Part shown: piece by piece, positions 50,059-53,026 of the stretch | Position numbering within the stretch: the stretch's first letter is position 1 | Layout of the letters: the number at the start of each line of letters is the position of its first letter | Sequence record: PQ529420 | From: Escherichia phage Eryne | Length of the DNA stretch: 64,000 nt | Reading direction: 5' to 3' (one strand) | Notes under the pieces: generated by a model | Told to the model about the DNA's origin: nothing | Seen by the model: only the letters and a program-made list of their open reading frames with translations | The model's database searches: none | Made by a program: the position numbers and the translations under genes

Positions 50059-50325
50059 TTACTCCGCAATCTGAGCCATGAATTCACGTAGTTCAGAAAA
50101 ACCTCCTACGTGGGTTAGCTGTTCACCATCTTCCACAAAAATCTGAGGAAATGTGCGTGGTAGAACACCTGTTTTCTCTAAAACCAGATTCTGAATCTGA
50201 TCTAAAGAATAGTCTTCATCTAAGGTAAGGTATTTAAAATCCTGTTCACGCTGTTCTAGTAGAATCTTAGCGTTAGTGCAGAAAGGACAATTTGGTTTAC
50301 CGTAGATAATAAAATTCATTTTCAC
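50059..50325 (-). CDS. glutaredoxin-like protein
   Basis: CPFC active-site motif near N-terminus. Confidence 0.7.
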   Translation of the reverse strand: MKMNFIIYGKPNCPFCTNAKILLEQREQDFKYLTLDEDYSLDQIQNLVLEKTGVLPRTFPQIFVEDGEQLTHVGGFSELREFMAQIAE

Positions 50326-51152
50326 TCCTTGTTTAAAAGTATAGTTAAAGTTCTTACAATACCGCTATCAACACTTCGCGGATTTAAAGTAGGATCTGTT
50401 TTTAAATAAGATGTTGCTGGTCTGACTGCTTTGGAATTATAGGTTGAAGCAGATACAGGATTAACTGTAACAGACAAATCTATAACAAGAAATATCTTTC
50501 GTGCAAAATCATACCAAGAAATATAATCTGCACCTGCATAGTGTACAATTTTACTATTTACACCATCTTTTACAAGTTTAAAAATTGTTTCTGCAAGATC
50601 AGGTGCATAAGTAGGACATGATAAATGATCACATACTACATTAAATTCTTTTTGACCACCGTTGTAGCGTTCCAACATAGTTTTCAAAAAGTTATGTCCA
50701 AATTCACTATAAACAGAAGCTGTTCTGATAATAAGTGCTGTAGGACAAACTGCTTGTACTAAAGTTTCACCTAATTGTTTACTGTAACCGTAGGTGTTCA
50801 AGGGGTTTGTTTTACTCTCTTCTGTGCCAGCAACATGTCCATCAAAAACATAGTCTGTTGAAATATGTACAAACTGTATCAGTAAATCATTACATGCTTT
50901 GGCAATGTTTGTTGCACCGTATGCATTAACATTTATACAGGTGTTAACATCTTCTTCAGCTTTATCTACTGCCGTGTAAGCCGCACAATTCACAACAACA
51001 TCAGGCACGTGCTGTACAAGACTATTCATAACATCTTTAAAGTTGGTAATGTCTATATCACTTGCTTCAATCAAAACAACATCTTCTGGTGCAACCTTTG
51101 CCAAAGATTGTCCTAATTGACCTTTTGAACCAAAGACTAAAAATTTTGTCAA
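50322..51152 (-). CDS. rfbD: dTDP-4-dehydrorhamnose reductase-like
   Basis: N-terminal Rossmann FGSKGQLG and RmlD-like length. Confidence 0.65.
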   Translation of the reverse strand: MTKFLVFGSKGQLGQSLAKVAPEDVVLIEASDIDITNFKDVMNSLVQHVPDVVVNCAAYTAVDKAEEDVNTCINVNAYGATNIAKACNDLLIQFVHISTDYVFDGHVAGTEESKTNPLNTYGYSKQLGETLVQAVCPTALIIRTASVYSEFGHNFLKTMLERYNGGQKEFNVVCDHLSCPTYAPDLAETIFKLVKDGVNSKIVHYAGADYISWYDFARKIFLVIDLSVTVNPVSASTYNSKAVRPATSYLKTDPTLNPRSVDSGIVRTLTILLNKE

Positions 51153-51703
51153 AATATGATCTCCTTTAGTGTTTTGGCTTCCTGATCTTTTTGTGACAAG
51201 ATAGGTTTAAAATTAATATCATTAAAGATTAAATCAAAACCCCAATCTATATTGATATCTGGATCATTCCACGCAAGACTACACTCTGAAGTCGGATCGT
51301 AATATTCTGTACATTTATATTCAAAATCAGCAATGTCGCTAATCACAACAAAGCCATGAGCGAAACCAGGAGGAATCCAAAATTGTGTTTTATTCTTTTC
51401 AGATAAAAGAACACCTACCCATTCTCCAAATGTTGGACTACCAACCCTAATATCTACAGCAACATCATAAACTTCACCACGAACACAACGTACTAACTTC
51501 CCTTGTGGGTTTTTCTTTTGAAAATGAAGCCCACGTAGAACTCCTCGAATAGAACGTGAATGGTTATCTTGGACAAAGTTTTGTTTACCTATGTATTGAT
51601 CATATAAAGCCTGATTAAAACTTTCTAAGAAAAAACCACGTTCATCTCCGTAAACGTCAGGTTGAATGATCAACAAATCTTCGATTTTTGTTGCTTGAAT
51701 CAT
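51149..51703 (-). CDS. rfbC: dTDP-4-dehydrorhamnose 3,5-epimerase
   Basis: RGFFLESFN and RGLHFQ cupin motifs. Confidence 0.8.
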   Translation of the reverse strand: MIQATKIEDLLIIQPDVYGDERGFFLESFNQALYDQYIGKQNFVQDNHSRSIRGVLRGLHFQKKNPQGKLVRCVRGEVYDVAVDIRVGSPTFGEWVGVLLSEKNKTQFWIPPGFAHGFVVISDIADFEYKCTEYYDPTSECSLAWNDPDINIDWGFDLIFNDINFKPILSQKDQEAKTLKEIIF

Positions 51704-51715
51704 TTAATTCCCCCT

Positions 51716-53026
51716 TTATTTTAATTTAAGTAAATACTTACCGTAGTCTGTTTTACTTAAAACCTCTCCAGAACTTTTTACAGAGTCTAAAGTAATCCAT
51801 TCATTTTTAAAAGCAATCTCTTCCAGGCATGCAACCTTCATACCTTGTTGCTTTTCTATTGCATGAACAAATTGAGATGCTTCCATAAGACTTTCATGTG
51901 TTCCTGTATCCAGCCAAGTGAAACCTCTTCCTAGTTTACAGACACGTAAAGCCTTTTCTTTCCAGTACATCTCATTTATATCTGTAATCTCTAACTCCCC
52001 TCTAGCAGAAGGTTTAACGCTTTTAGCTTTCTGTATAACAGAATTATCGTAAAAGTACAAGCCTGTGATTGCATAATTGCTTTTTGGTGCTTTTGGTTTT
52101 TCTTCAAATGTGCCTTTAGCTTTCCACCCTAATTCCTTTTCAATCTTATAAGGATTCACTTCATATCTTAAATCATGCCCAGGTCTATCTGTAACCATTT
52201 CAATGAGGCTACAAGCATCTGTTTCAGATGGATACACCGCATCCATATAATCACAAATCATATAGATTACATCAATATTAGTTCTAGGGTTTCTGCTCCC
52301 AATATTATATGTTTCTCCAGATTTGCCTTTAGTTACTACTAGGTGTAATGCTTCTGCGTGATCGTCAACGTATAACCAGTCTCTTACTTGAAGACCATTG
52401 CCATAAACAGGAATTGGTTTATGCATCAAGATATTTGTTATCGTTTTAGGTATTAGTTTTTCTGGATGATGATACGCTCCAAAATTATTTGAACAATTTG
52501 TTATAACTGTCGGAATACCATAAGTACGATGCCACGCTCTTACCAAATGATCGCTTGCTGCCTTAGATGCAGCATATGGACTACTTGGCTTATAAGGATT
52601 CTGTTCTGTAAACGGATAATCCCCTTCTTCCATATCACCATATACTTCATCTGTTGAAATATGATGGAACATTTTAAGATTTGATTTATCTCCCATTAAA
52701 CGAACAGCTTCTAGGAGATTAAATGTCCCAACAATATTTGAATTTATAAAAACACTCGGTGATGCTATTGAATTATCTACGTGACTTTCTGCTGCAAGAT
52801 GCATTATATAATCTGGATTAACATCTGCCACAATCTTAGCAGTTAACTGCGCATTTGTCAAGTCAACACGACAAAACTTTACATTGGGTGTTTCTGATAA
52901 ATTTCTAGGGTCTGAAGCGTAACCCCATTTATCTATAACGTAAATATCATTTTTAGTATTTTTAGCCAGGAAACGAACTACCGCACTTCCAATAAAGCCT
53001 AAACCACCTGTTACTAAGTATTTCAT
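51716..53026 (-). CDS. rfbB: dTDP-glucose 4,6-dehydratase fused in-frame to the C-terminal part of glucose-1-phosphate thymidylyltransferase (RmlB-RmlA' chimera)
   Basis: N-terminal GGLGFIGS...HLAAESHVD...YAASKAASDHLVRAW...DWLYVDDH (RmlB); C-terminal AITGLYFYDN...PSARGELEITDIN...WLDTGTHESL (RmlA C-terminus); RmlA N-terminal nucleotidyltransferase domain absent. Confidence 0.7.
   Translation of the reverse strand: MKYLVTGGLGFIGSAVVRFLAKNTKNDIYVIDKWGYASDPRNLSETPNVKFCRVDLTNAQLTAKIVADVNPDYIMHLAAESHVDNSIASPSVFINSNIVGTFNLLEAVRLMGDKSNLKMFHHISTDEVYGDMEEGDYPFTEQNPYKPSSPYAASKAASDHLVRAWHRTYGIPTVITNCSNNFGAYHHPEKLIPKTITNILMHKPIPVYGNGLQVRDWLYVDDHAEALHLVVTKGKSGETYNIGSRNPRTNIDVIYMICDYMDAVYPSETDACSLIEMVTDRPGHDLRYEVNPYKIEKELGWKAKGTFEEKPKAPKSNYAITGLYFYDNSVIQKAKSVKPSARGELEITDINEMYWKEKALRVCKLGRGFTWLDTGTHESLMEASQFVHAIEKQQGMKVACLEEIAFKNEWITLDSVKSSGEVLSKTDYGKYLLKLK

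Follow-up and report, generated by a model that had tools for sequence, protein, structure and literature searches.

The window analysed here is a 64,000-nt stretch of the genome of Escherichia phage Eryne (sequence record PQ529420), and the element under study is its operon for the deoxythymidine diphosphate (dTDP)-rhamnose pathway, which occupies positions 50322–53026 on the minus strand as three co-oriented open reading frames (ORFs) of 436, 184 and 276 amino acids. The largest of these (51716–53026, minus strand) is a chimera, rmlB-'rmlA, in which most of RmlB runs in frame into the C-terminal part of RmlA, as established from the ORF list, from domain coordinates and from alignment to the intact rmlB-rmlA genes of phages AV123 and phi92. 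The two smaller ORFs are rmlC and rmlD.

RmlB residues 1–307 are followed in the chimera by an EEK tripeptide common to both proteins (308–310) and then by RmlA residues 164–289. The unambiguously rmlB-derived part (codons 1–307) lies at 52108–53026 on the minus strand, as judged from invariant columns and from alignments to intact relatives and to structure 1G1A, and the rmlA-derived part (codons 164–289 and the stop codon) lies at 51716–52095 on the same strand, as placed by domain match and by structure and locus alignments. Amino acids 2–310 of the chimera matched positions 1–303 of 321 in the RmlB profile TIGR01181 (extended short-chain dehydrogenase/reductase; E = 1e-123), and the score of 412.5 bits exceeds the curated whole-protein cut-off of 365.1 bits. 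Amino acids 307–435 matched positions 156–284 of 286 in the RmlA profile TIGR01207 (E = 1.7e-55), with a score (188.1 bits) that falls below the corresponding cut-off of 360.65 bits, and a PF00483 match in the same part covered model positions 159–243 of 245. Among solved structures, amino acids 1–310 aligned with residues 1–326 of 361 of Salmonella enterica RmlB, and amino acids 306–435 with RmlA residues 159–288 (E about 1e-49), the C-terminal sugar-binding/oligomerisation segment of that enzyme. Both family matches lie far above chance.

The catalytic motifs of RmlB are kept: the GGLGFIGS nicotinamide adenine dinucleotide (NAD) motif at residues 7–14, the T125-D126-E127 triad, Y151 and K155, which make up the GxxGxxG, T-D-E and YxxxK signatures, all fall in columns that are invariant or nearly so in the alignment with homologues. 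The C-terminal domain of RmlB is incomplete. Its last 19 residues, LYSTIDWYVDNKEWWENKV, are lost and RmlA sequence stands in their place; in the intact protein this segment aligns with the conserved terminal helix (xTVxWYxxNxxWW) of S. enterica RmlB in the 1G1A alignment, and TIGR01181 positions 304–321 find no match in the chimera. From RmlA, residues 1–160 (MKGIILAGGSGTRL...VLGDN...) are deleted, and the nucleotide-binding core with its GGSGTRL and LGDN motifs is gone. The remnant (164–289) holds the EEKP stretch, the sugar-binding strands and the C-terminal helices, and its LEEIAF stretch aligns with E256, a residue of the RmlA allosteric site (PMC12773781). Given what is understood of RmlA structure and function, it can safely be inferred that the chimera cannot make dTDP-glucose, since the half of RmlA that binds the nucleotide for thymidylyl transfer has been deleted.

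An AlphaFold2 model of the chimera had predicted local distance difference test (pLDDT) scores of about 85–97 at residues 1–310, below 50 at residues 320–398 and 70–86 at residues 400–436. In the input alignment the RmlA part was represented by no more than four sequences, and the low confidence at 320–398 is not interpretable; a helix modelled at residues 315–327 probably arose from RmlB tails misaligned onto RmlA sequence.

Alignment to the rmlB-rmlA genes of AV123 and phi92 at base level showed that exactly 557 bp are absent from the Eryne window, and only 9 differences from AV123 are found over the remaining 1,311 nt of the chimera. The break-point can be placed anywhere in a 12-nt perfect direct repeat, TTGAAGAAAAAC, of which a single copy is kept at 52096–52107 (minus strand). 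Intact genomes carry this repeat near the end of rmlB (coding positions 920–931, codons 307–311) and again 557 nt downstream in the middle of rmlA (codons 160–164). Both copies were present, perfect and 557 nt apart, in all 31 intact loci fetched, which comprised GenBank isolates, ENA metagenome assemblies and Logan assemblies; Eryne has two flanking copies reduced to one, the arrangement expected of a deletion between short direct repeats. The lost segment covers three stretches: the 19 codons that end rmlB, a spacer of 8 nt in which the rmlA ribosome-binding site lies, and codons 1–160 of rmlA.

The TTGAAGAAAAAC pair is the only perfect direct repeat of at least 12 nt that links rmlB with rmlA. 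Its length is unremarkable, as an exact repeat of at least 12 nt occurred in 21–26% of shuffles of the 1,868-nt interval. Both copies begin at the second codon position, reading F-E-E-K-L in RmlB and I-E-E-K-P in RmlA, and because they share this phase the frame is preserved wherever in the repeat recombination takes place. That the fusion is open is thus a by-product of repeat phase and not evidence of selection.

A preliminary description of this DNA, drawn up from its letters alone, had already reported a chimeric RmlB-RmlA' ORF at 51716–53026, and the Pfam, NCBIfam and solved-structure matches confirm it. Its reading of an in-frame deletion within an rmlB-rmlA-rmlC-rmlD operon is borne out by the 557 bp missing between the repeat copies, and its placing of the junction at a FEE/EEKP stretch common to both proteins agrees with the (F/I)EEK found by alignment. 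The N-terminal catalytic domain of RmlA is absent, and the C-terminal similarity to RmlA holds, both as it had stated. Two of its boundaries need correction: the RmlB-like part, put at about 325 residues, ends at 307–310, and the RmlA portion, described as the C-terminal third, amounts to 126–129 of 289 residues (45%).

A second perfect direct repeat, GAATCCTTATAAG (13 nt), lies wholly inside the rmlB part, at window positions 52145–52157 and 52589–52601 (minus strand). Its copies are spaced by 444 nt (148 codons) and could likewise give rise to a deletion that keeps the frame; none was observed.

The region is 98.5–99.2% identical at the nucleotide level to phi92-like Escherichia coli myophages of the genus Justusliebigvirus (AV123, ESCO9, VEcB, muut, ZYD, phi92), and in each of these relatives a 3,701-nt query aligned as two pieces spanning about 4,257 nt. 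Their annotation gives separate rmlB (329 amino acids) and rmlA (289 amino acids) genes in the order rmlB-rmlA-rmlC-rmlD. The Eryne operon has the same genes, order and position between nrdB and glutaredoxin/endolysin as those of phi92 (gp067–gp064) and EmilieFrey (bas61_0214–0211), and differs from them by the missing 557 bp. Between positions 39500 and 64000 of the window, which are 99% identical to the closest relatives, the rml deletion is the sole structural break.

In all 53 scorable GenBank records of Justusliebigvirus the junction query split into two pieces spanning 694–698 bp, that is, the 557 bp were present; in a 54th record, phage Paula, the locus is divided across the record ends, consistent with an intact interval. 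The junction sequence was not found in the 53 scorable GenBank phage records, IMG/VR, JGI metagenomes or GTDB genomes. Because it is absent from every scorable GenBank relative, the lesion is a strain-level one and not a property of the phage group. Exact look-ups with the RmlC, RmlD and NrdA proteins of the window led to 28 places shown, all 28 with genes of 329 and 289 amino acids, although some contigs recur among them and near-identical neighbourhoods were collapsed, so this count leaves room for chimera-bearing contigs.

Outside the window, the exact 436-amino acid protein is recorded in one other place, a 35.9-kb Logan contig from run SRR31253914, which shares 7,186 bp with the window at 100% identity, crosses the junction without a break and stops some 2.9 kb from it. 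As the 64-kb window is longer than this contig, the two represent different assemblies. The 90%-identity cluster holding the chimera is that of the intact Justusliebigvirus RmlB proteins (115 members). Among the 40 members read was a second 436-amino acid chimera (P0131), present on four Logan contigs with the same junction and with the substitutions S236P and A359T. At position 359 both A and T occur among intact relatives, and P0131 alone has P236. Public data therefore contain the deletion allele in at least two sequence versions, which are compatible both with one deletion lineage that diversified and with two separate deletions. For comparison, one intact RmlB sequence alone is found on 181 contigs.

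The RmlC, RmlD and NrdA proteins of the window are identical to alleles of intact phages, and no amino acid of the Eryne chimera is peculiar to it among the relatives compared; for these reasons the deletion is, as far as the proteins compared tell, recent.

Two observations concern the relatives themselves. Positions 1–25000 of the window are mosaic against all relatives (87–93% coverage, 96–97% identity, 4–9 aligned pieces), and positions 39500–64000 are colinear; given the mosaic part, Eryne is an isolate in its own right and does not duplicate a deposited genome. Separately, four unannotated GenBank records labelled 'Campylobacter phage' with Campylobacter jejuni as host (MG065639, MG065645, MG065656 and MG065689; phages A150, A145, C3 and A110a) are about 99% identical in this region to E. 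coli Justusliebigvirus genomes, and their host label looks doubtful.

The two downstream genes are intact and full length, and both score above the curated cut-offs. The 184-amino acid product of rmlC (dTDP-4-dehydrorhamnose 3,5-epimerase; 51149–51703, minus strand) reached 259.8 bits with TIGR01221 (cut-off 155.75), and the 276-amino acid product of rmlD (dTDP-4-dehydrorhamnose reductase; 50322–51152, minus strand) reached 254.2 bits with TIGR01214 (cut-off 224.05). The exact RmlC protein is common to many intact phages (284 index blocks), and the exact RmlD protein is common to phi92 and others (33 index blocks). The chimera ends with the stop codon of the former rmlA gene, and an AGGGGG ribosome-binding site and the rmlC start codon come directly after it; with both the stop codon and this ribosome-binding site left as they were, rmlC and rmlD should be expressed as before. 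In a relative from ENA assembly ERZ27259853 (contig k141_101500, L010:4552-5381) rmlD was called as two fragments of 72 and 159 amino acids instead of one 276-amino acid gene, with rmlB, rmlA and rmlC intact, which may be a second lesion of the operon or a sequencing error.

Taken together, these data make it highly probable that the chimera represents a loss-of-function allele, created by deletion, of the rmlB-rmlA-rmlC-rmlD operon carried by every sequenced relative examined. It is best described as an ordinary spontaneous deletion that created a natural knock-out, and not as a new kind of enzyme or system. In an ancestor with a normal operon, replication slippage or illegitimate recombination between the two copies of TTGAAGAAAAAC would have excised 557 bp so that a single copy stayed behind, and the shared codon phase (both xEEK) would have produced the in-frame fusion automatically. 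The resulting protein, without the nucleotide-binding half of RmlA, would contribute no dTDP-glucose synthesis, rmlC and rmlD would be translated as before, and any residual flux through the phage pathway would start from dTDP-glucose made by the host enzymes RfbA or RffH. The existence of Eryne and of the P0131 lineage, both evidently viable, indicates that propagation, under the conditions used for this phage, does not require the phage rmlA.

Deletions between short direct repeats have long been established for E. coli (lacI) and for phages T4 and T7, and the Eryne lesion resembles them in that a perfect repeat flanks the lost segment and the product keeps one copy. Set against these cases, a 12-bp repeat with its copies 557 bp apart is nothing unusual; noteworthy is only that the repeat lies in phase in two unrelated genes, hence the fusion ORF.

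Several points weigh against the reading as a deletion allele. The activity of the RmlB moiety is uncertain, with catalytic motifs kept, terminal helix lost and an orphan fragment of 126 residues attached, and the structural model, confident over the RmlB part and built on a thin alignment over the RmlA part, says little on function. The existence of two chimera variants could mean recurrence or selection instead of a neutral accident. Support for the junction comes from assemblies and not from reads, a level of evidence with which a mixed population is also compatible, and the SRR31253914 contig is probably from the same sample as the window, and so not fully independent. The last of these points, together with the position of the junction exactly on the repeat, would also fit an assembly or sequencing artefact in which two 12-bp copies were collapsed and the true genome has intact rmlB and rmlA. 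However, a 12-bp repeat is shorter than the k-mers that assemblers generally use, the contigs of relatives fetched from several assemblers (Logan, ENA and NCBI) all resolve the repeats correctly, and the junction is found in two different assemblies, the Logan contig, which is continuous through it, and the source of the window. Because the second chimera variant, P0131, is found on four further contigs, such an artefact is very unlikely.

The two variants would also be compatible with a selected or recurrent loss. RmlA consumes deoxythymidine triphosphate (dTTP), and its loss could be advantageous on laboratory or rough hosts, with the same deletion arising and sweeping repeatedly. The repeat pair that would serve as substrate is present in every relative examined, the operon sits among genes of dTTP supply (nrdAB, thymidylate synthase and thymidine kinase), deoxythymidine pools in E. 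coli are drained when RmlA is dysregulated (PMC12773781), and the difference between the two variants at A359T, a position polymorphic among intact relatives, is compatible with two genetic backgrounds. The chimeras are nevertheless rare, being found on five contigs when the intact RmlB alleles listed account for well over 200; none was seen in the 53 GenBank isolates, many of which were propagated on K-12; and two amino-acid differences also fit one lineage that later diverged or recombined. Recurrent or selected loss is therefore unlikely, if worth keeping in mind. We consider it more doubtful again that the 557-bp deletion is both recurrent and selected, with a dTTP-consuming RmlA disfavoured in some propagation conditions, or that the chimera interferes with host RfbA and RffH through the oligomerisation/allosteric segment it has kept. 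Were this so, the remaining RmlB', RmlC and RmlD would still draw host dTDP-glucose and dTDP-4-keto-6-deoxyglucose into dTDP-rhamnose. The precursor thus diverted is also needed for enterobacterial common antigen, the glycan proposed by the BASEL authors as the target of these phages (PMC8594841); a link to the phage at this point is speculation. That the loss of a dTTP-consuming enzyme is an advantage in culture, or that the remaining enzymes still divert host dTDP-sugars, is likewise speculative and unlikely.

A new function for the fusion is highly improbable. It would have the RmlA remnant, which includes part of the allosteric site and of the oligomer interface, bind dTDP-rhamnose or join host RfbA/RffH tetramers, acting as a regulator or in a dominant-negative way. 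The fusion is in frame, the LEEIAF stretch aligned to E256 is kept and the last helices (residues 400–436) were modelled with moderate confidence, but the codon phase common to both repeat copies forces the frame, the fragment has less than half of the RmlA fold and most of it has a pLDDT below 50. The allele is, moreover, rare and shows no private substitutions or other signs of adaptation. As for a natural bifunctional RmlB-RmlA enzyme of the kind found in some bacteria, full-length fusions of 646 and 663 amino acids do occur in public data (P0023 and P0025), and these match the RmlA model at positions 1–285; the chimera matches it only at 156–284 and below the cut-off, and the nearest relatives all have two separate genes. 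There is next to no chance that such an enzyme is encoded here, as the domain coordinates, which do not show both domains complete, rule it out.

Acquisition of the chimera from a host was considered separately and is ruled out: both halves are about 99% identical to phage genes at the nucleotide level, and protein identity to enterobacterial RmlB is 53–58%.

Partial RmlB-RfbA fusions do turn up sporadically elsewhere. Like the Eryne chimera, P0020 (534 amino acids, from an E. coli assembly) and P0021 (504 amino acids) join an N-terminal part of RmlB (model positions 1–310 and 1–312 of 361) to an N-terminally truncated RfbA, which starts from model position 68 or 114. They differ from it in their break-points and in their sequence background (53–56% identity). 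Each of P0020, P0021, P0023 and P0025 was seen once.

The preliminary description had added that the pathway would lack thymidylyltransferase activity unless the host supplied it. This is a reasonable caveat, as two glucose-1-phosphate thymidylyltransferases, RfbA/RmlA and RffH, are native to E. coli (PMC12773781), and dTDP-glucose should therefore be available in the host without the phage enzyme. Its further suggestion, that the genes serve DNA hypermodification or cell-surface modification, fares less well. A complete dTDP-rhamnose pathway in phapecoctaviruses and phi92-like phages had already been noted, its DNA-metabolism setting called peculiar and glycosylation of modified bases suggested (PMC7552041), so the idea repeats an existing speculation, and it is weakened by the BASEL study, which reports exceptional susceptibility to restriction-modification systems in the phi92-like group 'despite a putative dTDP glycosylation machinery' (PMC8594841). 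A DNA glycosyl-hypermodification system would be expected to combine a DNA glycosyltransferase with an enzyme for a modified-base precursor, and to resist restriction. Some Stephanstirmvirinae are sensitive to many restriction-modification systems (PMC10844046), and the 49 kb that surround the operon in the curated EmilieFrey record, the annotated span considered here, list no gene for a glycosyltransferase. Owing to this sensitivity and to the lack of an annotated glycosyltransferase near the EmilieFrey operon, the DNA-hypermodification idea finds no support in the evidence considered, and any purpose ascribed to the pathway is tentative.

The consequences are mainly a matter of annotation hygiene. 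The 436-amino acid ORF should be labelled as a fused/truncated rmlB-'rmlA pseudogene-like allele and not as a bifunctional enzyme, and a complete dTDP-rhamnose pathway should not be credited to Eryne. Beyond this, Eryne and the lineage of the second variant are viable natural rmlA knock-outs with a clean lesion, detectable by polymerase chain reaction, against wild-type relatives. A comparison with their intact siblings could address burst size, host range, the pools of dTDP-sugars and the composition of virion DNA, which bears on the published ideas for the rml operon of phi92-like and phapecocta-like phages, namely DNA glycosylation or other glycosylation (PMC7552041, PMC8594841).

Three minor observations concern the genes around the operon. 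In relatives, the thymidylate synthase gene upstream of nrdA (L023:4749-5720 and equivalents) gave a weak hit to PF02511, the flavin-dependent Thy1/ThyX family, and is not ThyA-like; this weak ThyX-type match bears on any idea of a modified pyrimidine. Between nrdA and nrdB, a small ORF at 55164–55574 (minus strand) overlaps the start of nrdB and has 136 amino acids in the ORF list and 111 in relatives, where its counterpart has no Pfam hit on record. At 47426–48079 (minus strand), among nucleotide-metabolism and PhoH genes, lies a gene for a 217-amino acid protein that is annotated in relatives as a 'putative proteasome component' and gives a faint hit to the Pfam Proteasome family.

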